A DNA stretch of 64,000 nucleotides. It comes from Candidatus Sericytochromatia bacterium (GTDB lineage Bacteria > Cyanobacteriota > Sericytochromatia > UBA7694 > JACMQJ01). Shown here piece by piece: positions 2,603 to 26,541 of the stretch (the first letter of the stretch is position 1; each line of letters opens with the position of its first letter). The position numbers and the translations under genes were made by a program. The stretch is from positions 14,296-78,295 of the forward strand of contig BPII01000006.1 in NCBI GenBank assembly GCA_026004035.1, read 5' to 3'. The notes below the pieces were generated by a model, which worked only from the letters and a program-made list of their open reading frames with translations, was not told where the DNA came from and made no database searches.

Positions 2603-5600
2603 CTATTGTATCATAACAGAAAAACTAACTTCACCACTACTTCCAGGAGTTAATATTCCATTTACATTCCAAATTATAAGTCCTGTTCCATTTACAGGTG
2701 GTGCTGTTATAGTTCCACTTCCTGTAACAAAACTTGCAGAAACAAAAGTGGTATTAGCCGGTGTCATATCTTGTATTTTTATATTTTTTAAATCATCATT
2801 TCCCATATTAGTATAAACTATACTATAAGTTAAAATTGTTCCCGGTGGTTGGCTTCCTGTTGGACTAACTGTTTTAATAAGTCTTAGTACTCCTGATGTT
2901 CCTGAATCTGATACAGTTGTAATATCTTGAACTATGGCAACTTTATTTTGTGTTAATAATGGATCAGATGGTGTTAAAGTTGCTGTTAGGGTTAAAGTAT
3001 CTACTGTATTTACAGGTGCATTACTTGGAATTTCTACTTTAACTATAATTCTTATGCTATGATTTGAATTCAAGTTATAAATATCACCTAATGACATACC
3101 GTTAACATTACTATAAGGAGTATCAGGTCCATCTAATATACCATTTTCATTTACATCTCTAAAGAATGTATATGTCCAACCTTGAACTGAACTGAAATTT
3201 AATGTTACATTACCGGCTAAATCACTTCTCAAGTAATGAGTATAATATATTGTGCTACCTGCTAGAGCATTACTAGAATTATTTGGTGAAAACACAAAAT
3301 TGTCTGGACCAACTATTTTTACAGAAGAAAATTCTGATGTATCATTTGTAGAATTTGTGGCTGTAGTAGTTATGTATTCACCTTCAACTATCTTTCCACC
3401 AACATTTGGAATAATACAATCAATATTTCCATTACTATCAGCATAACAATTTCCTAGATATATTTGTCCTTCACCATGTTGAACATTTTTTACCATCACC
3501 TAGTATTATTTCACCATTATTATTTCCATCATCAGTAGCTTTGAATACTTCTATAAGAGAATTTGCAAAAGCTGTTTGATTTGGTGCAGAACCAACATAA
3601 CCTTTTATATGTAATGAATCACCTACTAATATTGCTGATGTAATAATTGGGTAATCAGTTCCATTATTAGCAAGAGAAGAATTTATTATTCCATCATTTG
3701 GAGTTACTCCATCAAGATTTATTCCTAATGTATTTGGATCAGGATTATCTGACCTTAAGTCTATACCTAGATTAGCACTACCTGAAACTAACCCATTACG
3801 AAAAATACTATTTTCTGTTATACGAACTCTATTAGTAGATTGAACAACAATACCAGCTCCACCACTATCAGATATTATATTTCTATATATTTGAACAACT
3901 GAACCTGAACCTATTGTTCTAACTATGATATTTATAGGTTCATTTGAAGGATTTCCATCTAAATTTTTACCATTATTTGAATATGTATTTTCTTGAACAA
4001 CTAAATTAACAACATTTGCTGATGGATTATATCCTAATTCACTACCTGCTCCTCTCATGTGATGAACATAGTTATACTGAATAGTATCATTTAAACCATT
4101 TCCTATTATAAGAATTCCATCAAAAGTATTAGTTTGACCTGTTGAAGGTCTTGTAACTTCATTATATTCTACAAGCATATTAGAACCGCCACCATCTCTT
4201 CTTATACCAGAATTATTTGTCTTTACATAGTTATGTCTAACTATCATATTTGAGCTGTTATTTCCTAATTCAACAAAATATGTAGCAGAATAAACTGTTG
4301 ATTCTACTCCATTTGCTTGCATTCCAAATAAATTATCTTGAATTAAAGAATTATTACCTTGTATTAATACTCCACAAGCAACAAAAGCTATATTTCTTAA
4401 TTCAAATCCTGTAGCTGCTGTTGTAGTTGTAAGTCCTCTTATATTTGAAGCAACAATTTCTACTTCAGGATTATCAAATGGTGGTAAATATGTTTGTGAT
4501 ACTCCTACAAAAACATTACCTGCTGTTTGTCCAATATTTGTTTCTTGACCTCCAGCTGTTCTTACATTATTCGTTTGTGTTCTACCATCTATTATAGTAT
4601 CTGGAGCTGTTATATCAGGTAAAGCTGAAGATAATATTATTCTTGCAGCACCATAAGAAGTTAATTGATTTGTGTAAGATGTGTTTTGTCCTGGATTTGA
4701 AACTCCATTTGGTATCATAAAAATAGATACTTCTTTACCAGGTGTTTGTCCAACCTGTGCAAGTCCAGAATTACCTAAAGCATTACTATTTAGTATAAAT
4801 TGTCTTAAACTTCCTTGTCCAGAATTATTTGTATTTACAATTGTGTCAAAGTTAAATCCAAAATCTACACCTGTAATATTTGAAACTAAATATACATTTG
4901 TAATAGATTGTGCTGTTGTAGTTGATGTATTAAGAGCTGATAAAGTTGTACTACCATTTCCGGCATCTACCTTTGTAGGATCCTGACCACCTACCATATT
5001 TGTAATATCTACAACAATACCACTAGAAACATCTGTTCTAAAAGTTTGAACTCCAAGCTCACCTGAACCACCACCTGGTCTTGATGAAGTAACAGAACTA
5101 TTAACTACTCTTACAGTATAATTTCCAGGTAATAATCCACTAAAAGTATAAATCCCACTAGCATTTGTTGTTGTAAATGTAACAAAATTACCTGCACTAT
5201 TATATAACTCAACTCTTACATTAGGTCTTCCTACCCCTGAAGCACTTGTAAAATTTCTACCTGCACCACCACCATAATTTATATCTTCAAATACTCTACC
5301 TGATATAGAGTAAGTAGCATTTGATATATTTATTGTATAATCTTCAACCTCTCCATCTAAAAATGTTCCTCCAGTATCATTAGCACTTATAGAACCTGTT
5401 GTTAATCTTAATCTTACATAAGAATCACCAGCTACTATATTAGGACCACTTCCACCTATATTATTCCAAGTTAAAGTTACATTTCCATTTGTTCCATTAG
5501 GTACATTAACACTAGTAGCTTCATCAGCTTGAAATATTCCATCTCTATCAAAATCTATCCAGCCGTATAATGTTGCATTATTACCAGTGTTATTATATAC

Positions 5601-8324
5601 ATTAACATTCAGACTATATGTTGAAAAAGATGTATGTAATAATGGAAAGCTTGTAACTCCATCTTCATCATCTGTATTATCATTATCATCACCATTAGCA
5701 CTTATACCTGGTAATCCATCATTTTCAGAATCTATTAAAGAACCTATTCTAATATTATTTTTTATAGCATGACGTGCTCCTGATGAAGAATTCAATGTTA
5801 AGTATGAATTTGATGCATCTCCATAATCATAAACATTCTGTATTGTTAATGTGTAATCTTCAACTTCTCCATTATTTTTCAAGCCTGCAAAATCTGAGTT
5901 TGATAAAGAATCAGTTGTAAGTCTTACTCTTAGATAAGAATTTCCAGCTTGTATATTTGTTGGTATAGATAACCAAGTTAATGTAAATGTTCCATTATTT
6001 GTTCCATTAGGAACAGTTATTAAACTACTAGCTTCACTGCTTTGAAAAACTCCATCTAAATTAAAATCTATCCAAGCTCTTAAATTTGCGTTTGAGCCTG
6101 TGTTATTAGTTACTAAAACATTAACAGAATATGAAGAAGCATTTGTATATAAAATTGGTATAGTTGAAATTGAATCTTCATCATCACTTGTATTTGAATC
6201 ATCTCCATTTGCACTTGTATTCGGTTGTCCATTATTATCAATATCTATTAAAGCACCTAATTTAATATTATTCTTTATAATATGTCTAGCACCATTTGAT
6301 GAATTAATAGTTAAATATGTATCTGGTGCATCACCATAGTCATAAGAAGTTATAGTAATATCTTCATTATTTGTAGATGTTGCAATATAGTAACTGTTGG
6401 TTGTTTGCCCACTAGTTGTTCTTTGTGGATCAAGATATTGAGCTTGAGCTGGATTTTGAAATGTTCCTTCAAAAATTGTATTAGGAATATTCACATTAAA
6501 AGTTATTGTTACACTTCCTCCACCTGGTATTGTAAAAACTCCCCAATTTGGATTTGTAGAACCAGATGATGGATTTGTTACAGGACTTCTTGTCGCTCCA
6601 CCTGATAGATTAACTGAAGTTGTAGACAAATATGTAAATCCACTTGGTAGTAAATCAGATATATTAACTTGTTCAGCATTACCTCTATTGATAGCATTTG
6701 ATACTGTAATAGTGTATTGTCCTGTAATTCCTGAAGATGTATTTGTTAAATTTGGTGTTGATGTAGTCTTTGTAACTGTCAAATTAGGTAAGCAATCGGG
6801 ATTTGCTCCAGCACCAGGTATTGTATTTATTGGAACAGGTGTTAGTAAATCACCAACAGAAGGAGCACCTGGACCTGATGTAGGAGCACCAAAGTAATTT
6901 GAAGTATCTGTTGTTGTATATCCAGGTGATCCATTTTGTATGTTTATTGTAGCTCCAGATGAAACAGTAACATATCCACCACCACCTCCACCACCAGGTC
7001 CATGAGAATTAATAAAACCTGATTGAGTTGGCCATGAATTAGCACCATTAGCACCTCTTGCATTTATTGTTATACCTGTTAGATTATTATCAGCTGTATA
7101 AAATAAAACACTACCACCTGCACCACCACCACCTGCACCATCATTAGCAGGGTCAGGAGGAGTAGTACCATTGGCATTTATAGTTCCTGTACTACCATTT
7201 ATAGTTCCAGCTCTAATAAATACCATTCCACCACCTAAACCACCACTACTTTGAACACCTGATGAATTATTTCTTGTTCCAGCACCACCACCTCCTCCCA
7301 TTACCATTCTTGTAGGAGAAGCAGGGAAAGGAGCACCACCTAAACCACCTCTTGGCAAGTTTGAATACCAAGTATTACCACCTTGACCACCAGCACCAAA
7401 ATTAGAACCACCACCACCACCAGAATTTTGGTCATTAGCACTTGGGTTTCCATCTGTACCACCACCTCCAGCATTGCCGGGAGCACCCCTTGCAAAACTA
7501 CCACCTGGATAACCTTCTACACCAGTATTAATAATATTACTACCATCATAAACATATCTTGGAGTTCCTGCTATACCTTCACCTTTTGAAGCATGAAAAT
7601 TTCCAGAATTTCTGACATAGTCTGTATTAGAACCTCCAGGACCACCTGTTACTTGTCTAGCACCACCACCACGAAATCCTTTTCCTGTCATATCTATTGT
7701 TGCACCATTAAAATTTAGTATTCCAGCAACATCAAAAGCCAAAACTCCTCCTGTATTACCATTCCAAGCAGGAGCAGTTACTGTTCCACTTAAAGTCAAA
7801 CTAGAATATTGAGGAACTCTTATAACTTGAAATCTTTTTTGACCACTTGTAGCAGTAGCATTTGCATTTATATAAGAATTAACTAATGGTGAGGCTAAGT
7901 TTATAGTTCCACCTGCTGTTGAAACTGAATTTGTTGCTATAGCATACTCAAAAAGTCCAGCATTACCAACACTTGTTTGTCCCCTTCCTGTTCCATCATT
8001 AGCTCCATAGTTAGCATTATTTGTATAATTTATTGTTCCATCTTGCATTTGTATTATAAGTAATAAGTCTCCTGGTGATATTCCAACAGCACCTAATCTT
8101 GAAGCTCCTACAGTTACTGATGTACTACCAGCTATAGGGTTTCCTGTTCCAGGGTAGTAATCTATAAGTAATGATGATGTAGGACCAGCTACTCCATCTT
8201 TACCAGGGTTACTACAATATGAAAATACTTCTTTTGTAAGAATTATATTTACTAAAATTAATATGAAAAGTATATTAAAAACTTTAAATTTCATCAATAA
8301 TTTAACAAATAACCTCCATAACAA
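2603..8324 (-). CDS. Giant secreted surface adhesin (~1900 aa): signal peptide, parallel beta-helix repeats, Gly-rich region, two GEVED-type repeats, Cna-B/SdrD-B domain, C-terminal DUF11 domain. Split into ORFs 3471..8324 and 2603..3499 by a 1-nt frameshift in an A6/T6 run at 3487-3492
   Basis: N-terminus is MKFKVFNILFILILVNIIL (signal peptide). A ~130-aa unit YDYGDA..SYLT.NSS.GARH.IKNNI..G...GEVEDYT(L/I) occurs twice. Beta-helix-like RITENSIFRNG repeats and a long GGGGxG stretch are present. YSISGRVFEDINYGGG...GNYTVRV is Cna-B-like. The 298-aa tail carries a TIGR01451/DUF11-like motif (GTILTYSIVYTNMGNDD). With A5 instead of A6 at 3487-3492 the frames read ...ILGDGKNVQHGEGQIYLGNCY continuously. 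Confidence 0.65.
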
Positions 8325-8326
8325 AA

Positions 8327-10747
8327 TTATTGTAAATCTTTTTTAGTCAATACATTATTTTGTCCCCAGATATCACCAAAATTTCCTAATTTAAATGTTA
8401 GACCAATATAAGGGCCTTGAGCATTATAATTTGTAGTTATCAAATCTTTATCATTATAACCAAAGAAATTATATCCTAAAGCTAATCTTAAATCTTTCAT
8501 AGGAAAATATCCTATTTCAGTAATAAAATCATTTAAAGATGTTAATGTTTCAAATTGAGTTAAATTTCTATATTCTCCTACTATATCAAAATTATAAGAT
8601 AATTTATATGTTATTCTTGCAAGTCCTAAGCTAATGTTTGAATATACAGGATTAAATCCTTTTGTTATATCATAAGAATTTTTCCATGCAAGTTTTGTAT
8701 ATACTTCCCAATAATATGAAGGTTGAAAAAAGCCTTCAAATGAAAATATATTGTTTAAAACATCAGAAGAAAATTCTAATCCATCATGATTTTTTCTTAA
8801 TTGATATTTAAACAAAGCATTGAAAAAATCACTATTTAAAGGTCTATAAGCTAGCCCAAATAAAGCATCCATATTATGAGTTCTTATCAATTCACTTGAA
8901 CTGTTATACATAAATCTTCCAAATACACCAAAATCATCACCTAAAGCTCCAGCAGCATTAAAGTTAAATAAATTACTTGCTCTTAATCCATCTCTAAAAT
9001 CATATTTAGCTGAAGCTCTAAATCCTAGATTTTTAGGGAAGTATTCAGTAGAAAAAGACCAAGCATTATAACTTTCATCCATAGATATATTTAAATTTGG
9101 ATTATTACCATTTACTCTTTCAAAATTAATTCCTAATGCAAGTTCAGGAATTAGATTTATTCTATTATTAAAACCAATTCTAGTTTGTGCTGACCTACCA
9201 TCAATTGCACTATCTATTTGATATTTTGCTCCCATGTTTAGTGAATTAAAAACATCTAAACCTGTATTAAAAGTTGTATCAGCTCCAATTATTGTAGCTG
9301 TTGTTAGTTTATCTCTTTCAAAAAATGCTTGTCTTGCATATAATTTTAAATTATCTGTTAAAGCATAGTCTAAACCTAATGTTGTTTGTGTTGGTCTTGT
9401 AAAATCTTGAGTACTTAATAAATTTTGTTCTCTACTAGCATTTAAAGATATATTATAAAATGTTGGAGATTTATAATTTAAAATTGCTAAAGCTGAATTA
9501 TCTATTTGATTTATATTTTGTGGATTTGAAAATTGTCTAAATTCTAAACCACCACTTACAATATGTGAAAATATATCCTGATTGACTCTTGTATTTAATG
9601 CTTGTAGTAAATGCCCGGTAGTAAAATTCTTATCTCTATTAAATTCAATATTTAAACTTGTAGCATCAAAAGGCTTATATTCTAGTTTTCCAAAATATCT
9701 TTCTGTACCAGGTGCAAAACTATTACCTGTTTTATTAGAGAAATCTTTTTCTACAAATTGATATTCACCTTTTAAAGATAAATTATCAAGTGGTTTTGCT
9801 GAAATACCAGCTCTATATGATGAACCGTATTTATCTTCAAAAAAACTATTTGCATATTCAGCACTTATGTCAAAATTTTCACCTATTTTCTCTGTTAAGC
9901 TTACACCTGCTAATTGATAAGGTGCTGAAGGATTTAATTCTCTTATATAATTACCTCCTAAAGTTAAACCAAAACCTAGAGGTTGATTTAATTTTACTCC
10001 TACAATACTATTTGATAATTCTTGAGGATAATATTCATAAGTTATTATTATAAAATTAGGATTTAAGTTTTCATCTACACTTGCTATTGGTTGACTAAAT
10101 ATTAGAGTTCCTGTAGAATAGTCTATATTGTAATCACTTAATCTTGTTAATGTAGTAGTTTTTAATATTCTATTTATAAATGTTCTGTCTCTTGTTTCTA
10201 TTATTATTCTTTCTGTTCCATTTACAAGAGGATATTTACTTGTGTAATATGGTCCTGAAACACCTGCAGCTCTTATTTCATCTCTATTAAACATTTGTCT
10301 TGATATAGCCCCAAATACTTCTAAATCAGTTATTTGAGGTATATTTAATTTTAATCTTGCACCATTTAGAACACGATTATAATTACTCATTCTTGGTGTT
10401 GTAATATCTGCACTTACAAAACCGGTATTAAAATCACCAAACATTAAACTAGATTTATCTTTTTCTAATTTAAAAAAAACATTACTATTTGATGTTACTA
10501 TTTGATTTAATTGACTTGAATCACCATATATTGGATATAATCTATCTTCAGCTCTATCTCTGAACATGATATTTGAATCATCATTTAAAGCGTTTAATTT
10601 TCTACGAGTATCTAATGCAAAAGTTAATAAATAATCATCAAAAATAGTTCCTTGAGTAAATAATGATCCTCCTATATCAAAATTAAAACCAGCTTTAGCT
10701 TTTGGGTCGTTTTCAAATGATTGTCCGCTTAGTAAATGAATATCCAC
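8327..10747 (-). CDS. Putative outer-membrane beta-barrel protein (806-aa fragment lacking its own signal peptide)
   Basis: Tyr/Phe/Asn/Gly-rich with alternating-hydrophobic beta-strand pattern across ~800 aa. GTG start with an in-frame stop 4 codons upstream. Sits 2 nt upstream of the adhesin gene. The signal peptide probably comes from ORF 10825..11535 via frameshift(s) in 10748-10830. Confidence 0.45.
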   Translation of the reverse strand: MDIHLLSGQSFENDPKAKAGFNFDIGGSLFTQGTIFDDYLLTFALDTRRKLNALNDDSNIMFRDRAEDRLYPIYGDSSQLNQIVTSNSNVFFKLEKDKSSLMFGDFNTGFVSADITTPRMSNYNRVLNGARLKLNIPQITDLEVFGAISRQMFNRDEIRAAGVSGPYYTSKYPLVNGTERIIIETRDRTFINRILKTTTLTRLSDYNIDYSTGTLIFSQPIASVDENLNPNFIIITYEYYPQELSNSIVGVKLNQPLGFGLTLGGNYIRELNPSAPYQLAGVSLTEKIGENFDISAEYANSFFEDKYGSSYRAGISAKPLDNLSLKGEYQFVEKDFSNKTGNSFAPGTERYFGKLEYKPFDATSLNIEFNRDKNFTTGHLLQALNTRVNQDIFSHIVSGGLEFRQFSNPQNINQIDNSALAILNYKSPTFYNISLNASREQNLLSTQDFTRPTQTTLGLDYALTDNLKLYARQAFFERDKLTTATIIGADTTFNTGLDVFNSLNMGAKYQIDSAIDGRSAQTRIGFNNRINLIPELALGINFERVNGNNPNLNISMDESYNAWSFSTEYFPKNLGFRASAKYDFRDGLRASNLFNFNAAGALGDDFGVFGRFMYNSSSELIRTHNMDALFGLAYRPLNSDFFNALFKYQLRKNHDGLEFSSDVLNNIFSFEGFFQPSYYWEVYTKLAWKNSYDITKGFNPVYSNISLGLARITYKLSYNFDIVGEYRNLTQFETLTSLNDFITEIGYFPMKDLRLALGYNFFGYNDKDLITTNYNAQGPYIGLTFKLGNFGDIWGQNNVLTKKDLQ

Positions 10748-10824
10748 TTTTTGAATTAGCTAATCCTATCATTATAGGTTTTCTATAAGGAACTGTATAT
10801 TCTAATTTACCTATTTTTTTTATA

Positions 10825-11535
10825 TCATTTACAGAAACTAATATTTTTACCTTCTCCAATAGTATTTGGACTTAATATATCTACTTCTATGTAACCATTT
10901 TTTGTTTTTAATTGAATTCCATTTGTATTCGGGTCTTGATCTTCAGATTTTATAACTCCATTATCAGTATTTACGTTTATAAATATATCATCTGGAACAG
11001 GATTATTATATTTATCTAGTATTTTTATTTTCAACTTTGATATTTTTTTACCATCAGCTGGAGCTGTAAATGGTTCAATTTCTATATTATAAGGTTTTCC
11101 TCTAACATAAATAAATTTTTCTAGAGTCTCTATAACATTATTGTTTGAATCATAAATTTTTACTAATACTTTGTTTTCACCTTCTTGTAAAGGTATAGCA
11201 TAATAAGTATATACATTATTATTATTACTTGTATCAAGTTGAATTTTACCTATTAGTTTATTATCAAGAATATTATCATTCAAAATTATTTCATAAGTAT
11301 GATTAGGTGGAACAGATAATTTGAATGAAGCTGAAGGAACTTCTAATAATGGTGTAGCTTCATTACTATTTAAATCAATTTCATTTCTTGAAACAAAATT
11401 TTCTTTTTCATCTACTTTTTCTTTTGTAACTACTGTTTCACCTAAAGTTATGGATTCTTGAGCAATGGCAATAGATGGCATTATTAAAATGCCAATTAAG
11501 ATTATACTTAATATATTTCTAATAATAATTGCCAT
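10825..11535 (-). CDS. Secreted protein with signal peptide and Ig-like (Big-type) beta-sandwich region; probably the N-terminal part of the downstream beta-barrel gene
   Basis: MAIIIRNILSIILIGILIMPSIAIAQE is a signal peptide followed by V/I/N/K-rich beta-rich sequence. The third frame is open across 10748-10859 and links this ORF to the 806-aa ORF. An A8/T8 run lies at 10813-10820. Confidence 0.45.
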   Translation of the reverse strand: MAIIIRNILSIILIGILIMPSIAIAQESITLGETVVTKEKVDEKENFVSRNEIDLNSNEATPLLEVPSASFKLSVPPNHTYEIILNDNILDNKLIGKIQLDTSNNNNVYTYYAIPLQEGENKVLVKIYDSNNNVIETLEKFIYVRGKPYNIEIEPFTAPADGKKISKLKIKILDKYNNPVPDDIFINVNTDNGVIKSEDQDPNTNGIQLKTKNGYIEVDILSPNTIGEGKNISFCK

Positions 11536-11552
11536 AATACTTATATACAGTA

Positions 11553-11612
11553 TTAAAATTCAAATTCGTATGAAGTTAAACACTACTTCATGTGAATTTT
11601 TTGTGAATTTTA
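11553..11612 (-). promoter_or_regulatory. Candidate activator-dependent promoter for the 11535->2603 operon: two 11-bp direct repeats (AAAATTCACA), then TTTAAC-N17-TTTAAT
   Basis: Minus strand reads TAAAATTCACAAAAAATTCACATGAAGTAGTGTTTAACTTCATACGAATTTGAATTTTAATACTG. The same block (~80% identical, identical -35/-10 spacing) occurs at 19171-19218 upstream of the 153-aa/975-aa DUF11 operon. Confidence 0.5.
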
Positions 11613-14600
11613 ATACCGCTTTTTCATGTCAATCTTAAAATTATTATCTTTTAATTCTAAATATTCATTAGAATCAAAAATCAATTTTAAATTTTTATCT
11701 AATATTGGTTTATCAAAGTTAAATTCAAAATCACCTTTACCAATATTAAGTTTCATATCATTTAAAAACAAATTAAATTGACTATTTGAATAACCTTTTA
11801 ATTTACCTTTTAAAGTTTGTGCATTTATTAAATTAGCTATAAATTGAGCAACTTCTGCTCTTGTTGTTAATTTGTTTGGTCTAAATGTGTTATCTTCAAA
11901 AGCTACTAATAAATTATTACTATAAGCATTTAATACATGTGGTTTAGCCCAATCTGGGATTTTATCAAAATCTGAAAAAATATTATTTATGCTTCTAGTA
12001 TTACTTCCTAGTGCTTTACTAACAATAGTAGCTAGTTCGTATCTAGGAATAAAATTATCAGGTTTAAAAGTTTTATCTCTATAACCACTTACAAGATTTT
12101 CATCAACTGCTACTTTTATAAAAGGATTAGCCCAATGATTTTCTTTTACATCAATAAAATTAGCTTTACCTACTGGTCTATAGTTTTCTTTAGCTTTGAC
12201 TATTTCTAACTCTAAATCAATTTTATTATTTAAATCATCACTAATTTGAATAATATATTTACCAATTTCTAAAGGATTATTATTATCATCAAATCCATTC
12301 CAATCTAAGGAATAAAAAACCTTTTTCAAAAATTTTATTTTCATAAAAAGTTTTAACTACTTTATTATCTTTTAAAACTTTTAAAGTTATAGGTGTTTGA
12401 TTATTAACAAAAAATCTTATTGTAGTAAAAGTTTGAACATCGTAAGATTTCATAGCAACTAAAATAAGTTTTGTAGCTTCAGCTCTTGTTATATTTCTTT
12501 CTGGTTTAAAGTTACCATCCGGATAACCATGAATAATTTCTAATCCTGACTCATATTCAACGATTTTTCTTGACCAATGATCTTTAATATCTGGATATGT
12601 AATATAAGGTATTTTCTTTATGGAAATTTGATTAGGAAATAGAAATGCTAAACTTATAGGGTTTTCAGGTTTTCCTAACTTAAAGTCAATATTATCTAAT
12701 TTTACAAGTCTAAAGTTTGCCTTTCCTAATCCACTTTCAGGTATGAATACTCTTCTTATAATATCATCTTCACCAATCCAAGCTTCTTTTATTGGATTTT
12801 TAAATTTAGGTATATAATAAAGTGTTATTAATTTCTCTTTATTATCATAAATAACTTTTAAATCATTTGCTTTTTCCTTTAAGTCTAATTCATTTGTATT
12901 TAATTTTAAGCTATTATTTTCACTTTTATAAGTTTTATCATTTATATTTATTTCAAAATTTGTATTTGAAATAAACTCTAAAATTCCATCTGTAACATTT
13001 ACAAATCTATCCTTTATAATATCAATTTGTTTTTTTGTAGCTTTATCTATCTCTTTATTTTTATTTTCTATTAATTCTATTGCTTCATTTACAGGATAAA
13101 CATTTTTTAGGTAATGAATTTTTATCTATATGTAGTATAAAATCTCCTGGTGGTAAATCAGGTATAGAATATTTACCATTTTTATCTGTTAAAATTCTTA
13201 AAACCGTTTGCAGTGTATAATTCAATATTTTCTAATCCTGTGTCTTTCTCATCAGGTATTCCATTATTATTATTGTCTATAAATACTCTACCTATTATTG
13301 CACCATTATACCCGAATATATCTTTTCTAACAAAAACAATTGCTTTAGCTGGACCACCTTCAAGTTTAGTTCCATTAGGAGAAATTGCATTAACTCTTGC
13401 TTCATTTATAGATGCACCACCACTTACTCTTATACCTGTTCTAGCTTGATAAACTAAAGTAAATTTCTTTTCTGGTGGCATATCACCAAGTTTTATTTCC
13501 ATTTTTTCAATAGCTTCAAAATTATCTATTTTTTGACCATTTATGGATAATGTATTAGGTACATACTTAAAGCCTTCTGGTAATTTATCTATTACAATAC
13601 CATTTTTTAATGTATATCTAAGTTTATTTGTTACATCAACAGTATAAAACAACTGTATCACCTATATTTATAGTTTGCTTATTAACTTTTTTATTTATAT
13701 CAAAAATCTTTTTAGCTCTTAAAGGAATATTAAAAGGAATACTTTCAACATCTTTTATTACTGTTAATTGTGCTTTTTCATCAAAAATATTAAGCATATA
13801 TTTACCAATTTTTTCATCACTTGGCATAGTTCTAACTATAAATTGTCTGCTTTCATATCCATCAGCTTTTACTGTTAAACAATATTGTTTAAATGTTAAT
13901 TGTTCTTTTGATAGAAAAAATTGATAAAGACCATCTTCTTTTGTAATTATAGGGTTATTTTGAGATTGTCCTGGTGCTATATCTTCTAGTTTTACTAAAT
14001 TATTAGGATTATCACAAGAATGTATTAACCTTACTTCAGCATCTTTAACTCTTACATCTAATCCTCCTAACTCATCATAAACTATACCAAAAGGATCAAC
14101 TAATAAATCTAAATTAACTATTACATCGCCTTCCTTTACTTCAACATTTACTTTACTATAAGTAACATATCCATCAGCTTTTGTAACTTTAACATAATAA
14201 ATTCCTGGTTTTAATTCATTTCCTTGAGAGTCTTTTGAAAATTGATATAATCCGTTTGCATCAGAATTTACAGTTGCTATAACATTACCTTTCTCATCTA
14301 ATAGTTCCACAAGTGCATTAGAAACGATTTTTTTAGTTTGACTATCTACTACTTTACCTGATATTTCTATTGGTGTTTTGTTATCACCAATTTTTTGAAT
14401 ATTAACATTTTTCTGAGTTATCAAAATTCCATTTTTATCTTGATATATTATTGTGTATAATCCTTTATCTGGAAGAGAAACTTTAAATGTACCCAATTTT
14501 CCTGTTAAATAAGTAGTTACTTCTTTTCCATCTTTATCTAGCACCTTTATAATTGCTTTATCTAAAGGCAATCCTGTTTTTTTATCAATAACAGTTCCAG

Positions 14601-15659
14601 AAATAAAATATTCTAATTGTAATGTGTTAACTGTAGTGTTAGTTAAAACTTTTATTACTTTCTTATCTACTAAATCTTTTGTCAAAAAATTATCTTTATC
14701 ATCTTTATGTGGATATTCTACATAAGCTTGATTATCTATACTACCTTCTTTTGCATTATCCTTAACTTTAACTTTAAAACTTACTTGTGCTTTTACATCT
14801 TGCTCTAATTTATCCCATAGAACTTTTATGTATTTTGTATCTTTGCTAGGAAAATTATTCCAATTTACATTATCATTGGAAAATAAAATTTTACCTCCTA
14901 AGTTTGCAATAACAGGTGTATCAATTAGTAAAAAAAACATCATCTGGAAGTTTATCTATTAAAGCTAAATCCAAAGCAACCTCATCACCATTATTTTCTA
15001 ATTCAATGGTATATAAAAGAACCTCACCAACTCTAATATTACCTCTAGGATAAACACTTTTATTTGTTACTATACTAACACCTTTTTTCTTTGTATCAAA
15101 AGGTATGCTACTAGTTATGGATATCACTTTTATTTTTAAATTATCTTGTTTTATAATAGTAGGCTGTAATATAGTAATACCTGATATTTTTGGTTCTATT
15201 ATTGTATTGTCAGGTAATCCTATAATATCTTTTATAGCAACTATAAAATTAAAAGTTTGATTTGGTTGTAATTTAGGTGTTGATACTATTTTACTTTCAT
15301 CTTGTTCTATTAATCCATTATTATTTTTATCTTCATATATTTCAAAAATTGTTCCAGCTAGTAAATTTTCAACACTAAGATTATATGTTTCTTCTTTATC
15401 ACCTGTATTAGTTATTTCAGAAGGAAAAAGCCAAGTACTTAAAGGTGTTCCTTCTATGTTATTTTTTTTTGCTTTTATAATAAAATTCCTATTTATAGCA
15501 ATTATAGATGTTTCTTCAATATTTGATAAAACCTTTTGAGTTTTACCTTTATCATCAATATAAGTTCCTTCAGCTTGATTAATTATGGAAAGTGCAAAGG
15601 AATTTTTTTTGAAAAATAAAATTACTATAAATAAGAATAATTGAAATATTTTTTTTCAT
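11610..15659 (-). CDS. Large SLH-domain cell-surface protein (~1340 aa): signal peptide, DUF11, multiple Cna-B/SdrD-B-like domains, two C-terminal SLH domains. Broken into at least 5 frames (ORFs 14921..15127, 13636..14943, 13182..13661, a start-less frame ~12290..13120, 11610..12344)
   Basis: The ATG at 15659 is followed directly by an A8 run (plus strand T8 at 15649-15656). With A7 the product begins MKKIFQLFLFIVILFFKKNSFALS (signal peptide) and reads through into the 15127 ORF. That ORF contains EVLLYTIELENNGDEVALDLALIDKLPDD (DUF11-like). The 435-aa and 159-aa ORFs carry Cna-B-like repeats (GKVVDSQTKKIVSNALVELLDEKGNVIATVNSDANGLYQF; GRVFIDNNNNGIPDEKDTGLENIELY). The open frame 12290-13120 encodes IHGYPDGNFKPERNITRAEATKLIL (SLH) and the 244-aa ORF encodes GYRDKTFKPDNFIPRYELATIVSKAL (SLH). 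Frame junctions coincide with A/T runs (for example A8 at 14930-14937). Confidence 0.6.
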
Positions 15660-15668
15660 AATTTTTCA

Positions 15669-15693
15669 AAAAAAAAGGCTCTTACGAGCCTTG
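15669..15693 (-). terminator. Rho-independent terminator of the 975-aa gene
   Basis: Minus strand reads AAGGCTCGTAAGAGCCTTTTTTTTTG: a 7-bp GC-containing stem, 4-nt loop and T9 tail, 9 nt after the stop at 15702. Confidence 0.7.
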
Positions 15694-15701
15694 ATTTAAT
15701 A

Positions 15702-18629
15702 TTAATTAATTTGCACCCTAAATCTTACTTCTCCTCTTTCAGCTGGATTTACTGTTCCTCCAGTTGTTGCTGTGTTAGCACCTCCAACATAAAATCTAAC
15801 TTGATTTGTTAAGAATTCACCTGCATCATCACCACTAGCGTCTGTAACAGCAGCACCATTAAATACTCCTCCATTATCAGTTATATCAGGATCATATTGT
15901 AATGAACCTGAAACATATGTTGTATTTGCTGGTATTAAGTCTGTAATAACACAATTTAGAGCGTCAGCACTACCTATATTTTCATATTGTATTCTATATT
16001 CTAAAATATCACCTGGTTTTCCTGTTGTTCCAGGATCATTATTAGTTCCTGAAGGTCCTTTATTTACAACAGATTTTGTTAATGATATGAAGCCAGATAC
16101 AACTGTTGTAGTATCAGTATTAGTTTGTGTATTAGAACCAACTTGTCCTGTAACTACTGTGCTGTCAACAGTTCCTGAAGGAGTTCCAGAAGGTATAATA
16201 ACCTTTATTTTGAAATTAAATGAAGCACCAGGTGCTAATGGTGTTGTTGTAGTTATTATATTATTTGATGTATCCATTACTTGATAAGTAAACCCATTAG
16301 TTCCAGCACTTGCACTTAAATTATATGTTTCAGTTGTATTACCTGTATTTGTTAATGTATGGTCGTAGAATAATACACCACCAGCAGGAGCAGAGCCACT
16401 CCTATTTGCTACTAATGTAAATGTTCGGAAAGCAGGTACTATTAAAGTATCGGATACAGTATCAAACTTAGTATTATCATTTGTAGATGTAGAAGTAATA
16501 TTAACTGGATATGAATTTGGTGCTACTCCAGAAGGAACATTTACAACAGCCACAAAATTAGCTGAAGCACCAGCATTTATAACACCTGTATCACTAACAT
16601 TTAGATTTCCTCTTTCTAAAACAGTAGCACCAGCTGCAACAGAAGCAAATAAAGATTGACCAGCAGCAAATGTTACTGTATTACCAGCTACACTTCCTAC
16701 TGTTAAAGTTTGACCATTAATAATTATATTATCTCCAGCTGTAAATCCAGTAGCATTAGTTAAATCAACTGATGTTGCACCTGCTGATGCAGCACTAGCT
16801 AATGTTGTTGTTGTAAGAACAGGATAGAATAAAATTGTTGCACCAGAGATTGTAGTAGATGAGGTTAGATTAAATGTATCAGGACTACCTCCTTTATTTT
16901 GTATTTGTATAGGATAAGAAACTGTTGTTCCATTTGCACTAGCTGTAAGTGATACAGGTGTATCATCATCATTTGTGCTTGCACTTCCATTTATTATATT
17001 TTCTAAATTAACATCAGGTACAATAACACTAGTTAATCTATTTCTTGTTGTATCACTTAATGTTTGTCCTGGATTTGTTCCAATAGCTGTTCCACCATTT
17101 GTAGATGTTGCTCTAACAACTGCATTGAAAGGACCACCACTTGCATTAGTAGGAACAAAAACTCTTGTTACAAATGTAAATTCTCCTTCATCTACAGCAG
17201 GAGTATTTGGATCATCTCTCAAAATATTTCCTGTATCTGGGATACTATCACCGTTTGTGTCGAGTAATGGATTTACGTTATTAGCTCCAACACTTGGATC
17301 TGTTAATTGGAAGAAAGAAACAGTTGATCCAGCAGGGAATGTATTACTATCTACTGTAATATTAAATAAATCAGTTGCATTACCTTTGTTCTTAACTACA
17401 TTTTTGAAATATAAATATGTTCCTGCTGGAGTGCTTGCTTGAACAGTTGCATCTGTTGTAGCTGCATCTGTACCTGTTGTTGTTTGAGCACCAAATGGAG
17501 TACTTGAGAATGTTAATAGTACAGCTGATTTTCTATTAATTTGAGAATTTACTGTATTTGTTGTTCCTGTTATTTTTGGTGTATTAATATCATTATCATC
17601 ATAACTAAAATTAGCACTATTTGGAACTACTACATTAGGAGCAGTTGCTTCTACTCTAACTTTAAAACTTACCACTCTTGTATTAGCTGGAGCCAAAGAA
17701 GGTAATTGCCATCTAACATGTGTTACATTTGCATCTGTTGTTCCTGTAGGAGTATAAGTATAAGTTGTACCACCATCATTTGAGAAAGAAAATGTTCCAA
17801 CACCACTTTGAGAAGCAACAATAAAATCTGTATTTGCTGGTATTTGATCTATAAACTCAACATTGTTAGCTGTTTGGTTACCAGTATTTGTAATTGTAAA
17901 TGTATATGTTAAATCACCATTTGGATCAACATTAGCTAAGTCAACTGTTTTAGATACTGATATAACAGCATCATTTACAACTGTTGTTTTATTATAATTA
18001 TTTGTATCAGTTACAGTATTATTACCTACTGAAGTACCTTGTAAATCTACTGTTATAACATTACCACTGCTAGCACTTGATGGAACTTGATATTTTACTA
18101 TTAACTTAACTTGAGTATCAGCTGGAACATTATTGACAGAACCTCCATTTGGTATTAAAGTATCTCCAACATCTACTATACCATTTCCATTAACATCTAA
18201 ATATACTTCTTTACTACTATTTACTCCTGTAACCAAGCTTGGTGTTGTTGTTGAACCTACTACAGAACTTATTGTGAAAGAATCTGTAGCATTACCATTA
18301 TTTGTTAATGTATATGGATAATATACAATACCACCTGGTGTAGCATTTTGTTGTTGTCCTGGTGATGCTTCAGTTCCATTTGGGGTTATAGTAAAACCAT
18401 AAACAGCAGTTACAGTAGTTGTAACAAGATTAGATGTAGAAGTATAAGAATTATTTTGTGAGTCCTCGTAAGTCGCTGTAGCTTGGTTACCTATAACAGT
18501 TCCTGCTGGAGTTCCAACAGCCTTGGCTTCCTTTTGAACTCCAACTAAAGAAAATGGTGTAACGAGTAGTAAAGCTGTTAATAATGAGGTTAGCTTACTA
18601 CTTTCTTTTTTGAGTTTAATTTTACTCAT
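15702..18629 (-). CDS. DUF11 (TIGR01451 conserved-repeat) cell-surface protein, 975 aa, Thr/Asn/Gly-rich; possible S-layer or outer-layer component
   Basis: Signal peptide MSKIKLKKESSKLTSLLTALLLVTPFSLVG. Repeated ~100-aa beta-rich units with motifs such as YTFTITNTGNQTANNVEF and YNLSASAGTNGFTY. Strong SD AAGGAGAG 7 nt before the ATG. Confidence 0.6.
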   Translation of the reverse strand: MSKIKLKKESSKLTSLLTALLLVTPFSLVGVQKEAKAVGTPAGTVIGNQATATYEDSQNNSYTSTSNLVTTTVTAVYGFTITPNGTEASPGQQQNATPGGIVYYPYTLTNNGNATDSFTISSVVGSTTTPSLVTGVNSSKEVYLDVNGNGIVDVGDTLIPNGGSVNNVPADTQVKLIVKYQVPSSASSGNVITVDLQGTSVGNNTVTDTNNYNKTTVVNDAVISVSKTVDLANVDPNGDLTYTFTITNTGNQTANNVEFIDQIPANTDFIVASQSGVGTFSFSNDGGTTYTYTPTGTTDANVTHVRWQLPSLAPANTRVVSFKVRVEATAPNVVVPNSANFSYDDNDINTPKITGTTNTVNSQINRKSAVLLTFSSTPFGAQTTTGTDAATTDATVQASTPAGTYLYFKNVVKNKGNATDLFNITVDSNTFPAGSTVSFFQLTDPSVGANNVNPLLDTNGDSIPDTGNILRDDPNTPAVDEGEFTFVTRVFVPTNASGGPFNAVVRATSTNGGTAIGTNPGQTLSDTTRNRLTSVIVPDVNLENIINGSASTNDDDTPVSLTASANGTTVSYPIQIQNKGGSPDTFNLTSSTTISGATILFYPVLTTTTLASAASAGATSVDLTNATGFTAGDNIIINGQTLTVGSVAGNTVTFAAGQSLFASVAAGATVLERGNLNVSDTGVINAGASANFVAVVNVPSGVAPNSYPVNITSTSTNDNTKFDTVSDTLIVPAFRTFTLVANRSGSAPAGGVLFYDHTLTNTGNTTETYNLSASAGTNGFTYQVMDTSNNIITTTTPLAPGASFNFKIKVIIPSGTPSGTVDSTVVTGQVGSNTQTNTDTTTVVSGFISLTKSVVNKGPSGTNNDPGTTGKPGDILEYRIQYENIGSADALNCVITDLIPANTTYVSGSLQYDPDITDNGGVFNGAAVTDASGDDAGEFLTNQVRFYVGGANTATTGGTVNPAERGEVRFRVQIN

Positions 18630-18657
18630 TTTATACTCTCCTTATAAATAAAAATTA

Positions 18658-19113
18658 CTATTTTAACTTAACTTTATAACTTATAACCAAAGTTTGATTT
18701 GGTTTTAAAGGTTTATCTATAAGCCATTTTATTTTTTTATACATATCAGGTGTTGCTGGTTTTAAAACTTCTTTATTTCCTTCTCTTACTTTTATTTTTG
18801 GTTCTTTATCAAAAGTTTTACCATCTAGGCTAAATAAAGCTTCATATAAATATTTTTCTTTAATATATGTTGTTCCTTCTGGTATATTTCCTACCGGTTG
18901 TAATTTTCTAGCTTCAGAATCACCAACATTTGTCAAAACAATTCTATATACAAGAGTATCACCAGGCTGAGCTTTATCAGCAGATTCGTAAATTTCTTTA
19001 TTATCTTTCAAAATTATCTTTTGATTTTCTAGCTTTACCTTTACATCAGGCTTAGAATAAGCTGGTAAAGAAAAAGTAAAACTTATTAAAAATAAACTTA
19101 CTAATCTCTTCAT
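18658..19113 (-). CDS. Small secreted single-domain DUF11-like protein (~151 aa), first gene of the operon with the 975-aa protein
   Basis: MKRLVSLFLISFTFSLPAYS is a signal peptide. DTLVYRIVLTNVGDSEARKL is a DUF11-type motif. The ORF track start at 19119 is a TTG; ATG at 19113 is more likely. Confidence 0.5.
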   Translation of the reverse strand: MKRLVSLFLISFTFSLPAYSKPDVKVKLENQKIILKDNKEIYESADKAQPGDTLVYRIVLTNVGDSEARKLQPVGNIPEGTTYIKEKYLYEALFSLDGKTFDKEPKIKVREGNKEVLKPATPDMYKKIKWLIDKPLKPNQTLVISYKVKLK

Positions 19114-19170
19114 AATCAAACAAAAATAATAATAACTAATATGTTATTTTAATACTATTAAATAACAAAT

Positions 19171-23389: not shown

Positions 23390-25140
23390 ATGTCTTTAGA
23401 TTTGAAAATACTTAATGGTAATATTATAGATGGAACAGGAAATAAAGCTTATGTTTCTGATATAGGAATAAAAGATGGTAAGATTGTTGAAATAGGTAAT
23501 TTAAGTAGTAATTTAGCAAAAGAAACTATAAATGCTGATGGGTATATCGTTACCCCTGGTTTTATTGATTTACATACTCATTATGACGGGCAAATATCTT
23601 GGGATTCAGAATTAACACCTTCTTCTATTCATGGAGTCACTACAGTAGTAACAGGTTCTTGTGGAGTTGGATTTGCACCTTGTAAAGAAAAAGATAGAGA
23701 AAAATTAATAACACTAATGGAAGGTGTAGAAGATATACCTGGTTCAGCTTTATCTGAAGGGATAAATTGGAAATGGGAAACTTTTACAGAATATATGAAT
23801 GCCATTGACTCAATACCTCATACAATAGATTTTGCTATGCAAATGACACACGATCCTTTAAGAGTATATGTAATGGGTGATAGAGCTGTTGCTAATCAAA
23901 AAGCTACCGAAGATGATATAAAAAAGATGGCAAAAATATTAAGAGAAGGTTTAATTAGTGGTGCTGTTGGCTTTTCTACAGGTAGAACTGATAATCATAA
24001 AAGCGGAAGAGGTGAAGATACACCAGCAGCTGAAGCTAGTGTAGAAGAATTAACTGGAATTGTGCAAGCTTTTAAAGGTATTAATCATGGAATAATACAA
24101 GCCGTAAGTGATTTTGATATGTTAAAAGGAGATGAATTTTTCGATAAAGAATTTGATGTATTAGAAAAAATGGCTTTAGTAAGTAATAAACCTCTTTCAA
24201 TATCGCTTATGCAAAGGGATCAATCACCTAATCAATGGCAATGGATAATAAAAAGAGCAGAAGAAGCAAATTCAAAAGGTATAAATATAAGATTACAGGT
24301 AGGTGCTAGAGCAATAGGCGTTTTATTAGGATTAGAAACCACTTTTCAACCGTTTATGGGATTTCCATCTTATAAAAAAATAAGTAATTTACCTTTAGAA
24401 GAAAGAGTTAGAATAATGAAAAATCCAGAATTTAAAGAAAAACTGTTAAAAGAAAAAAATGAAAAATTAGCTGGTGATGGTAGCCATATACCACCTTTAG
24501 CAGATATATTGTTATCTCAATTAGATATCATAGGTATGAGAATGTTTAAATTAGGAGAAAAACCTAATTATGAACCTGAGATAAAGGATAGTATAGGATA
24601 TAAAGCTAAACAAAAAGGTGAGAGTATTATAGGTGCATTATATGATGCTTTGCTAGAAGATGAAGGAAAAGCTTTGATATATTTTCCTTTGTATAATTAT
24701 ACAGAATTTAACTTAAACAATTTGTATAAAATGATAAATCATCCTCTTTCTTTACCCGGATTAAGTGATGGTGGAGCACATGTAGGTACTGTTTGTGATG
24801 CTAGTTTTCCTACATTTATGCTTACACATTGGTGTAGAGATAGAAAAGGTGATAAATTTAATTTAGAAAAAATTATAAAAAACAAACTAAAGACTTAGCT
24901 GATTATATAGGCTTTAAGGATAGAGGAATAATAAAAGAAGGATTTAAAGCTGATATTAATATTATAGATTTTGATAATTTAAATCTATTACCACCAAAAT
25001 TAATTTCTGACTTACCAGCAGGTGGCAAAAGACTTATGCAAAAAGCTAATGGTTATATAGCAACAATAGTAAGTGGTGAAGTAATATTAAAAAATAATGT
25101 ATTTACAGGCAAAAAACCAGGTAGATTAGTTAGATTATAA
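23390..25140 (+). CDS. N-acyl-D-amino-acid deacylase (D-aminoacylase, amidohydrolase superfamily); frameshifted near 24867-24882 (two A6 runs)
   Basis: PGFIDLHTHYDGQISWD and SDGGAHVGTVCD motifs. After the stop at 24898 the protein continues in the +2 frame (24862-25140: ...DLADYIGFKDRGIIKEGFKADINIIDF...PAGGKRLMQKANGYIATIVSGEVIL), which is the normal D-aminoacylase C-terminus. Confidence 0.75.
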
Positions 25141-25175: not shown

Positions 25176-26354
25176 ATGAAATGTTCTATTGTAATGACAG
25201 GAGGAGTAGTAAAAGGAGCCTTTCAAACAGGTGTTTTAAAATCTTTAGCTGAAAGAAATATTATTCCTAGTGTTGTAGTAGGAGCTTCCGCAGGTGCTCT
25301 TAATGCAGGAATGACTACAAAATTAATTGCTGAAGATAATTTTAAACCTGAAGTTATAGAAGATCAAATGATAAAAGTTTGGTTATATGAAACATCTTTA
25401 ATGAATTTATGGGGTGAAAGTACCAACAAAAATAATACTATAAGAGATATTTTAGGAATAAATACTAACCCTTTTATGATAATAAAAAAATTGTCAAATT
25501 TTGAAATAGAAATCTGGGAAAAACTGAAAAAAATTCTTTCACTTTCTTTTTTATCAGTTTTTAATAATGAATCATTAATGAAAGTTTTAAATAACTATAT
25601 AAAAGCACCTAATGAAATATTAAATGATGTAAAATGTGCAGTATCACTAACAGATTTACTAGGACATACTGAAATCATAAATAATCAAAAAATAAATAAT
25701 TATTCTGAATATGTAACATTTGAATTTAAAAAAGGAGATAATGATAAACTAAGAGAAAAATTTAAACTTTTGAGAGAAGTAATATTAGCATCAGCAAGTT
25801 TTCCAGGAATGTTTCCACCTTTTGAAATAGATATAAAAAAAGATGGTAATAAAAGACTATATATTGATGGTGGAATAACAAAAAATGCACCTTTTGGTAG
25901 AGCTATAAAACTTGATTCTGAAGTAGAATACGTTTTTTTAATATCAACTACTAATATAAGTAAGCCTGTAATAAATAGTATTAGCACTTTTACAGATTTA
26001 ATATCTCAATTATATGAAATAATAATAACAAAAGATATAGCCAATGATTATAGAAAAGTAATTCAGATAAATGAAAAAATAAATATATTATCTAATCTTC
26101 TAGAAAAAGATAAAAATAATATTATTATTGATAATAAAAAAAACAATGATTTATGTAAATTAGCTGGTTTTAAAAATGTTAAAGACTATCTCTCAAAAAG
26201 AATTGTAAAAATAATATTTATAGAACCTGAAAAACCGTTGGAAGGTGATCCTTTTGCTGGAATATACAGAAAAGATAATAGAAAAATACTAGAAAACTAT
26301 ATAAATGAAGGTTATAAAGTTGGTAATAAAGTTTTAGATAATTTTTTTAATTAA
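25176..26354 (+). CDS. Patatin-like phospholipase
   Basis: Oxyanion-hole region VMTGGVVKGAFQTGVL and nucleophile motif GASAGALNA (GxSxG). DGG present near DGGITKNAPF. Confidence 0.75.
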   Translation: MKCSIVMTGGVVKGAFQTGVLKSLAERNIIPSVVVGASAGALNAGMTTKLIAEDNFKPEVIEDQMIKVWLYETSLMNLWGESTNKNNTIRDILGINTNPFMIIKKLSNFEIEIWEKLKKILSLSFLSVFNNESLMKVLNNYIKAPNEILNDVKCAVSLTDLLGHTEIINNQKINNYSEYVTFEFKKGDNDKLREKFKLLREVILASASFPGMFPPFEIDIKKDGNKRLYIDGGITKNAPFGRAIKLDSEVEYVFLISTTNISKPVINSISTFTDLISQLYEIIITKDIANDYRKVIQINEKINILSNLLEKDKNNIIIDNKKNNDLCKLAGFKNVKDYLSKRIVKIIFIEPEKPLEGDPFAGIYRKDNRKILENYINEGYKVGNKVLDNFFN

Positions 26355-26361
26355 CAAAAAT

Positions 26362-26503
26362 TTGTAACTAGGCTAATATTATTTTTGATAAGCTTAAGAT
26401 CCCTTAATAGTAAGCATTCTAAAGATTTATATTTAAATATACTTTAAATTTAGTATTTATAAGCTTTTGAAGATAATTTTTTTATAACTCAATCTCAGTA
26501 CCT
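26362..26503 (+). repeat. Copy 2 of the ~140-bp interspersed element
   Basis: Aligns with 56890-57033 and the reverse complement of 2436-2578 (GGCTAAT...TTTTTGATAAGCTTAA...TAATAGTAAGCATT...ATAACTCAATC...). Lies between convergent gene ends. Confidence 0.6.
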
Positions 26504-26541
26504 AAATTATAGTTATATTTTTTCAACTAGTTTGAAAATAA

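Follow-up and report, generated by a model that had tools for sequence, protein, structure and literature searches.

We describe here a 64,000-nucleotide window of the genome of a Candidatus Sericytochromatia bacterium (GenBank assembly GCA_026004035.1, contig BPII01000006.1, positions 14,296 to 78,295), which contains a candidate gene cassette for a surface fibre. Five consecutive coding regions lie between window positions 2603 and 19119, all on the minus strand. In order of transcription, they encode proteins that we call the cap, the shaft, the anchor, the barrel and the tip adhesin. An initial annotation, made from the sequence alone, had already placed all five products at the right coordinates and on the right strand, and the SLH, DUF11, GEVED and Cna-B domains that it named are borne out by Pfam and NCBIfam profiles. 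DUF11 domains are present in all four non-barrel proteins, and the SdrD_B and CarboxypepD_reg domains found alongside them are of the CnaB type. DUF11 has recently been renamed CLIPPER, in work that showed it to be an immunoglobulin (Ig)-like domain of stalks in which Lys, Asp and Asn make an isopeptide bond within the domain (PMC12617251).

The first gene of the cassette (18658..19113) encodes the cap, a product of 153 amino acids (aa), or about 151 aa if counted from the ATG, that consists of a signal peptide and one CLIPPER/DUF11 domain. This domain scores below the Pfam threshold for PF01345 (20.3 vs 24.6) and above that for TIGR01451 (30.2 vs 24). It ends after its F strand (…VISYKVKLK) and thus has what we term an acceptor end, without a donor hairpin. 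In five other loci (L002, L007, L011, L015 and L016), an ortholog of 154-164 aa stands first.

The second gene (15702..18629) is intact and encodes the 975-aa shaft, which is 100% identical to the NCBI protein KatS3mg068_1055 of a Candidatus Sericytochromatia metagenome-assembled genome. The shaft begins with a signal peptide and a donor hairpin, continues as a string of Ig-like domains and closes with a C-terminal acceptor CLIPPER domain. Its Pfam matches are to DUF11 and DUF7619, and its PF01345 score is 53.6 bits (cut-off 24.6), compared with 66.6 bits for the anchor and 34.5-38.8 bits for the C-terminus of the adhesin. The AlphaFold2 (AF2) model of the shaft is made up of all-beta, Ig-like domains with a predicted local distance difference test score (pLDDT) of 88, and a Foldseek search with this model returned generic multi-Ig proteins only. 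Thr, Ser, Asn and Gly are abundant in its sequence, and Cys is nearly absent.

Directly 3′ of the shaft gene is a strong intrinsic-terminator-like hairpin followed by a T-run (15675..15692, minus strand), which is kept in L001, a contig 82% identical to the window at the DNA level. A terminator in this position fits an abundant subunit, made at a high ratio to the machinery, and suggests that the downstream machinery genes are attenuated. A shared promoter had been claimed for the locus, and this finds no support: promoter-like matches are no more frequent than in shuffled sequence (115 observed vs 117.5 expected), and the terminator interrupts the series after the 975-aa gene. At the same place after the shaft gene, L002 has a different hairpin (4157-4188).

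The third gene (11610..15659) encodes the anchor, of 1347 aa once six inserted bases are removed. The gene, put at about 1340 aa in the initial annotation, is not an open frame here: six +1 insertions, to which we return below, break it into seven pieces. Intact orthologs measure 1348 aa (L001), 1288 aa (L002) and 1418 aa (L007). The layout comprises a signal peptide, a donor hairpin, a stalk of DUF11 (x2), CarboxypepD_reg (x2) and SdrD_B (x2) domains, SLH repeats and a tail. Three SLH repeats were found in place of the two first reported: repeat 1 at 12451..12597 and repeats 2 and 3 at 11826..12158, all profile matches. The match to PF00395 is strong (E 5e-33; 113 bits vs a cut-off of 20.8, in three stretches of the frame-corrected anchor) and recurs in the intact orthologs. 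About 1000 aa of Ig-like domains precede the SLH repeats, an Ig-like insert separates the first repeat from the other two, and a tail of about 80 aa follows the last.

The fourth gene (8327..11535) encodes the barrel, of 1068 aa after removal of two inserted bases, beginning with a signal peptide. It had been read as an ORF (open reading frame) of about 800 aa resembling a beta-barrel, with the signal peptide supplied by the ORF upstream. Both points hold: the two ORFs are one gene, represented by single ORFs of 1072-1233 aa in orthologs, and a large beta-barrel is borne out by the AF2 model of the ortholog P0001 and by fold matches in the PDB. Two Ig-like domains (10846-11334) precede about 40 beta strands, and an insert (GVSGPY…ETRDR…DYNIDY; 10031-10270) contains the family's most conserved motif. 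In the model of P0001 (1072 aa, 85-89% identical; pLDDT 73.8), a signal peptide and Ig-like domains at residues 50-250 are followed by about 40 predicted membrane-length strands between residues 256 and 1051. The only helix is H321-333, with no long helix present, and the conserved motif sits in a small beta insert. The PDB fold matches (MtrB, SlpA (8ae1), FimD/PapC, LptD and SprA) are generic, with template modelling (TM) scores of about 0.2.

By sequence, the barrel shows only a sub-threshold match to Porin_4, together with sub-threshold matches to Big_1 and Invasin_D3 in the Ig-like domain before the barrel. Neither the barrel profile nor the shaft or adhesin sequence retrieved any relative from the PDB, and NCBIfam holds no family for the barrel, which is without a curated name. 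The family is nonetheless large. A profile search of 1.84 billion representatives, clustered at 50% identity, recovered 6,871 clusters at E ≤ 1e-3 and 3,003 at E ≤ 1e-30. The only names under which relatives appear in databases are 'uncharacterized repeat protein (TIGR01451)', 'SdrD B-like domain-containing protein' or 'YfaZ family outer membrane protein'.

The last gene (2603..8294) encodes the tip adhesin, of 1896 aa after removal of one inserted base. It contains two GEVED units (5400-6344; E 3e-26) and an SdrD_B domain (5103-5306). Its C-terminus is an acceptor CLIPPER domain (2606-2893), and it has no donor hairpin. Its Gly-rich N-terminal region resembles the AgmC_N model with a score below the cut-off. 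A beta-helix had been attributed to this protein, which no profile confirmed.

Apart from the barrel, these proteins show a split-domain pattern built on CLIPPER. The cap, shaft and adhesin stop right after the CLIPPER F strand (…V.F.V.V-COOH), and the Pfam matches of their terminal domains halt at profile position ~80 of 114, where the proteins end. Complete internal domains go on with a hairpin (vv.N.A.f.Y.D…(S/T)N.V) bearing the Asn of the isopeptide triad. In the shaft (VGTPAGTVIGNQATATYED…TSNLVTTTV) and in the anchor (LSIINQAEGTYIDD…), precisely this missing hairpin comes straight after the signal peptide, and the same donor motif stands at that place in anchors and fused anchor-barrels of other phyla. 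Within the shaft, the three states can be compared directly, with the triad assigned according to PMC12617251. An internal complete domain (17538..17966), which serves as the reference, carries Lys227, Asp261 and Asn337 and matches the DUF11 profile from position 2 to 105 of 114. The C-terminal acceptor (15705..16094) keeps Lys852 and Asp897, lacks an Asn-bearing hairpin and ends in …VRFRVQIN. The donor hairpin forms the mature N-terminus (18411..18518; VGTPAGTVIGNQATATYEDSQNNSYTSTSNLVTTTV) and contains the invariant Asn48. The mature N-terminus of the anchor is likewise a donor hairpin (15521..15592; LSIINQAEGTYIDDKGKTQKVLSN).

Conservation follows the same pattern. There are 618 homologs of the shaft, and both ends are kept in 115 of the best 120, which come from several phyla. 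In an alignment of 47 sequences, I46, N48 and D897 never vary, and conservation reaches at least 90% for K852 as well as for the internal K227, D261, N337 and A339; the split K852/D897 and N48 mirror the internal triad. In the AF2 model of the shaft, the N-terminal hairpin shares an interrupted-strand pattern with the internal G/G′ strands. When the shaft peptide is appended to acceptors in silico, the chimeras match the profiles of four related families (DUF11, DUF7507, DUF7619 and DUF7927) over their full length, and their scores change by +3.4 to +9.5 bits, compared with -1.7 to +2.0 bits for the reversed peptide. Finally, the grammar of the ends is constant in the classified cassettes: the cap and adhesin have an acceptor only, the shaft has both ends, and the anchor has a donor only.

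This grammar bears on the interpretation first given to the locus, namely that it builds an outer layer or toga held via SLH proteins, in which a paracrystalline layer of DUF11 proteins contains the barrel. The SLH repeats that such a surface layer (S-layer) calls for are real, the composition of the shaft and the terminator behind its gene are as for abundant structural proteins, and DUF11 is linked to archaeal S-layer porins in a passage of PMC12617251. However, the putative layer proteins themselves lack SLH domains, which only the anchor has, and subunits with one donor and one acceptor each predict chains rather than sheets, so that the head-to-tail ends point to a linear fibre in place of a paracrystal. 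Elsewhere, moreover, the cassette has an OmpA domain or no recognisable wall-binding module. Nor does the host suit a toga. The host, known from a Candidatus Sericytochromatia MAG, is a normal diderm rather than a toga bearer: homologs of the barrel are named Sericytochromatia or Cyanobacteriota, and the AcrB and SecF genes in the window are consistent with a diderm envelope. We consider an S-layer or toga-like locus very improbable. An origin in the Thermotogota, with proteins of the Ompα/Ompβ kind, was rejected on the names of these homologs and the lack of a coiled coil. Among the scanned ORFs of the window (nearly all those of at least 100 aa), no csaB or other pyruvyl transferase was found.

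Comparison with other genomes suggests that the five genes belong together. The order cap, shaft, anchor, barrel, adhesin is kept in three further Sericytochromatia loci (L002, L006 and L007), as well as in Thermus thermophilus, both in NZ_AP025604.1 and on the HB8 megaplasmid pTT27, where the cassette shows the same donor and acceptor grammar. The same gene set occurs in the gammaproteobacterium Oceaniserpentilla (L011), and a core of anchor-type protein, barrel and adhesin is also present in a filamentous cyanobacterium and in a contig from the European Nucleotide Archive (ENA). Judging by source names, homologs of the barrel or shaft extend across Cyanobacteriota/Sericytochromatia, Deinococcota, Pseudomonadota, Verrucomicrobiota and Krumholzibacteriia. 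The pTT27 genes (L016, NC_006462.1 173362-187718) are TTH_RS10905, 10910, 11750, 10920 and 10925, all annotated as hypothetical or DUF11. After the adhesin gene, L002 (14714-15514) and L007 (21692-22441) have an extra gene of 249-266 aa. The window has no counterpart, its adhesin gene being followed by an AcrB gene on the opposite strand.

In most relatives, the anchor and the barrel are a single protein. Of the 150 best barrel relatives, the majority measure 1600-2800 aa and have a C-terminal barrel; a typical anchor-barrel fusion has about 2000 aa. DUF11 and SdrD_B lie ahead of the barrel in 19 of 24 sampled fusions, while three of the 24 carry an OmpA peptidoglycan-binding domain in place of SLH. 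In Proteobacteria, OmpA stands in for SLH, and the Oceaniserpentilla fusion has its OmpA domain (E 1e-15) at the SLH position. P0031 (2488 aa) contains three SLH repeats and then the barrel in one chain. The anchors of Thermus and LEGE 11480 have no recognisable wall-binding domain. The fusion of SLH protein and barrel indicates that these are two halves of one machine, and that wall binding is recurrent and exchangeable. Together with the five-gene synteny in distant relatives, P0031 supports the view, already present in the initial annotation, of a single coherent envelope locus in which SLH wall anchoring and a large outer-membrane barrel act jointly.

Such coupling could also be that of a tether or porin of the OmpM/SlpA kind, joining the outer membrane to the wall. 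It would stabilise the envelope and might serve as a pore, with the DUF11 proteins being independent adhesins that leave by another export route. Linkage of SLH and barrel is the known tether of Terrabacteria and Cyanobacteria (PMC10628300, PMC9388160), SlpA is among the fold matches, and SLH is exchanged for OmpA. Yet an Ig-like stalk of about 1000 aa and a shaft-type hairpin on the anchor would be needless for a simple tether. Acceptor-ended neighbours are conserved from Thermus to Proteobacteria, and the anchors of Thermus and LEGE 11480 would have nothing recognisable with which to bind the wall. A simple tether appears improbable to us.

A similarly low probability attaches to the possibility that the barrel is an exporter of the autotransporter or two-partner type, secreting monomeric adhesins, with the hairpin as a secretion or targeting signal. 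The fused form, with its Ig-rich N-terminal part and C-terminal barrel, is autotransporter-like, the weak Big_1 and Invasin_D3 matches sit beside the barrel, and the adhesin gene is always downstream. Against this, no match to a type V barrel or POTRA family was found in Pfam or NCBIfam, and the number of predicted strands is ~40, compared with 12-16. Further, the hairpin is the exact piece that the acceptors are missing, with Lys, Asp and Asn conserved, which a mere signal would not explain.

The fibre is our preferred reading. Whether the locus is a five-gene cassette for a surface fibre of CLIPPER proteins, spanning the outer membrane and anchored to the cell wall, seems to us evenly poised. 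On this model, all five products would be exported by Sec. The acceptors (cap, shaft and adhesin) would present strands A to F, with Lys and Asp, minus the last hairpin, and the donors (shaft and anchor) would begin with that hairpin, including its conserved Asn. Each donor hairpin would dock in the acceptor of the next subunit outward, giving a polymer assembled in trans that runs from the tip or cap through shaft(n) to the anchor. An isopeptide bond between the Lys and Asn of adjoining subunits might then seal each junction. At the base, the Ig-like stalk of the anchor would run through the ~40-strand barrel, which would act as conduit and collar, and the three SLH repeats would bind wall polymer in the periplasm.

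Several observations weigh against this model. The score gains of the chimeras are modest, and the anchor's own hairpin brings at most +1.5 bits. The AF2 monomer gives the N-terminal hairpin of the shaft a pLDDT of ~90, and in this prediction the hairpin may pack in cis. The catalytic Asp is missing from the cap (VGNIPE) and the donor Asn from one alphaproteobacterial anchor (L010), which rules out covalent bonding as a universal feature. At the ENA locus L014, the downstream fn3 proteins are without acceptor-like ends, with one exception. The barrel, which on this model would conduct protein, has only generic fold matches with TM ~0.2, and no chaperone-like gene is present. In addition, the anchor, barrel and adhesin genes are frameshifted here, which leaves expression of the cassette in the host population in doubt.

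These frameshifts comprise nine +1 single-base insertions, of which six break the anchor gene (at 15656, 14937, 13649, 13203, 13109 and 12319), two the barrel gene (at 10849 and 10737) and one the adhesin gene (at 3488). Eight were located by DNA alignment to L001, in which the anchor and barrel are intact. L001 ends near the start of the adhesin gene, and the ninth was located from the overlap of the two adhesin frames. All nine lie in or beside A/T runs of 3-8 bases. For example, the first of the six anchor frameshifts is in an A8 run right after the anchor ATG (15649..15656), where the ortholog has A7, and the adhesin frameshift is in an A6 run (3486..3491). Once the nine bases are deleted, uninterrupted ORFs run for 1347, 1068 and 1896 aa, their 4,311 codons containing no further stop, and the frame-corrected products are 75% and 85% identical to orthologs. 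Such clean ORFs, with this identity to orthologs, indicate that the genes are not old pseudogenes.

Two explanations for the breaks were rejected. An alternative genetic code does not apply, since the breaks are changes of frame rather than in-frame stops and the nine deletions restore the ORFs. Programmed frameshifting or transcriptional slippage was set aside, as no slippery motif is common to the nine sites and several runs are just 3-5 bases long.

Public data offer a further view of the insertions. Two contigs (L004 and L012) of the Logan assembly of sequencing run DRR290133 match the window at 100% identity. L004 stops inside the A8 run at 15649-15656, after exactly seven A. The other contig contains the 3488 insertion, so that the adhesin frameshift is present in an independent public assembly, and begins exactly past the T-run at 10737 (10735-10737). 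Contig ends of this kind match the expectation for a de Bruijn graph, and suggest that n and n+1 alleles are both present in the reads of DRR290133, be it as real heterogeneity or as an artefact. The truncated ORFs of 236, 435 and 244 aa were not found in public assemblies, nor was an intact anchor allele of the host in a search with the intact anchor ortholog.

The locus could be inactive or switched off here, with the frameshifts being real and representing either a recent remnant or an on/off switch at the level of the population. Three genes have nine +1 insertions between them, compared with a single frameshift in the remaining 47 kb; the 3488 insertion turns up again in an independent assembly, and two contig ends of the DRR290133 assembly fall where n and n+1 alleles would diverge. 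Nevertheless, 4,311 corrected codons of 25% GC DNA with no further stop and no deletion are unlike decaying genes, and the same sign of all nine changes suggests a technical or very specific cause. No such breaks affect the cap and shaft genes, and the genes of close relatives are likewise intact. We regard inactivity of the locus as unlikely, though deserving of serious consideration. The one frameshift found outside the cassette is of opposite sign and affects an amidohydrolase gene (23390-25137) near 24880, with 24862-25137 matching the C-terminal end of Amidohydro_3.

The remainder of the window contains genes of other kinds. An exceptionally AT-rich stretch (26000-30500; 18-19% GC), which may be an acquired island, contains two JmjC/cupin-like genes and two ORFs without family matches. 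It is followed by a gene for a 1704-aa protein (30465-35579) with no obvious signal peptide, whose sole family match is a weak one to Reelin_subrepeat-B. This protein has neither donor nor acceptor ends and is therefore not a member of the cassette. Further along are genes for a 1265-aa restriction-modification enzyme of the Eco57I/MmeI type (type IIG-like; 37887-41684) and a 1085-aa protein that consists almost entirely of WD40 repeats (17 stretches; 46894-50151). No tRNA or Rfam features were found in the window.

Among known systems, the proposed fibre would be closest in logic to chaperone-usher pili (FimA/FimH/FimD, PapC), in which an incomplete Ig fold is completed by the N-terminal strand of a neighbour, as the sequences suggest here. 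In such pili as in the proposed fibre, the tip adhesin carries an acceptor only, the rod subunit carries acceptor and donor, and the final subunit would fix the chain at a large outer-membrane barrel. Both also have a terminator after the gene of the major subunit, and FimD/PapC are among the fold matches of the barrel. Unlike chaperone-usher pili, the cassette has subunits with a CnaA-like CLIPPER fold, a two-strand hairpin as donor and possibly a covalent bond. Its barrel has ~40 predicted strands vs 24, SLH or OmpA would hold its base to the wall, and its shaft has ~900 aa vs ~160 aa. No Pfam or NCBIfam match to an usher (PF00577) or chaperone (PF00345) was found in any cassette protein.

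In its possible chemistry, the cassette would by analogy resemble the archaeal threads of Sulfolobus acidocaldarius and BsaA of Clostridium perfringens. The papers on these (PMC9715654, PMC11580942) deal with filaments for which donor-strand complementation and isopeptide bonds are reported, the bonds of BsaA being intermolecular according to the title of its paper. The same combination is proposed here. The hosts of the threads and of BsaA are without an outer membrane, and their systems have no barrel, no wall-anchored basal subunit and other families of subunit.

OmpM/SlpA tethers couple periplasmic SLH to an outer-membrane barrel (PMC10628300, PMC9388160), as do the adjacent genes here and the fused P0031. 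They differ from the cassette, which has an Ig-like stalk and donor hairpin before SLH, no coiled coil, SLH that is replaceable or absent, a larger barrel with Ig-like domains of its own, and conserved DUF11 partner genes. Sortase pili share with the cassette Ig-like domains of the Cna type, Lys/Asp(Glu)/Asn chemistry and a basal subunit fixed to the wall. Unlike them, the cassette belongs to a diderm host, no sortase was found among the scanned window ORFs, and there is no LPXTG, all C-termini ending in the F strand of an acceptor domain. The bond, if formed, would be autocatalytic within the reconstituted domain. SpyTag/SpyCatcher, an engineered split isopeptide domain that reconstitutes in trans (PMC6539128), resembles the proposed junction.

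The CLIPPER fibrillar adhesins of PMC12617251 use the same families (DUF11, DUF7507, DUF7619 and DUF7927) as stalk domains. The passages of that report bearing on these adhesins describe intramolecular bonds in complete domains, and mention neither domains split between proteins nor an associated barrel. No description of the cassette was found in the literature searched. Some apparent literature matches to DUF11 turned out to concern DUF1102, DUF111 or DUF115.

The cassette thus fails to qualify as a member of the chaperone-usher, sortase, type V or OmpM/SlpA families, and there is a substantial chance that it represents a distinct, widespread class of filament. In its full form, the proposal is more tentative, and we place it somewhat short of an even balance: a widespread, undescribed class of diderm filaments, in which split-CLIPPER 'Catcher' and 'Tag' subunits would polymerise through autocatalytic intermolecular Lys-Asn bonds, with a basal subunit passing through a single-chain ~40-strand barrel and fixed to peptidoglycan. 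The barrel of SprA has 36 strands, and a single-chain barrel of ~40 strands would, if true, be larger.

If true, this would represent a new route to building pili in diderms without a sortase or chaperone, combining strand complementation with covalent chemistry of the Gram-positive kind. It would provide a function for thousands of unnamed outer-membrane proteins of ~2000 aa, currently listed under names such as 'TIGR01451 / DUF11 / SdrD B-like', and would offer natural split-domain ligation pairs from thermophiles. The presence of a cassette on pTT27 of HB8 makes the hypothesis directly testable in the tractable Thermus thermophilus.

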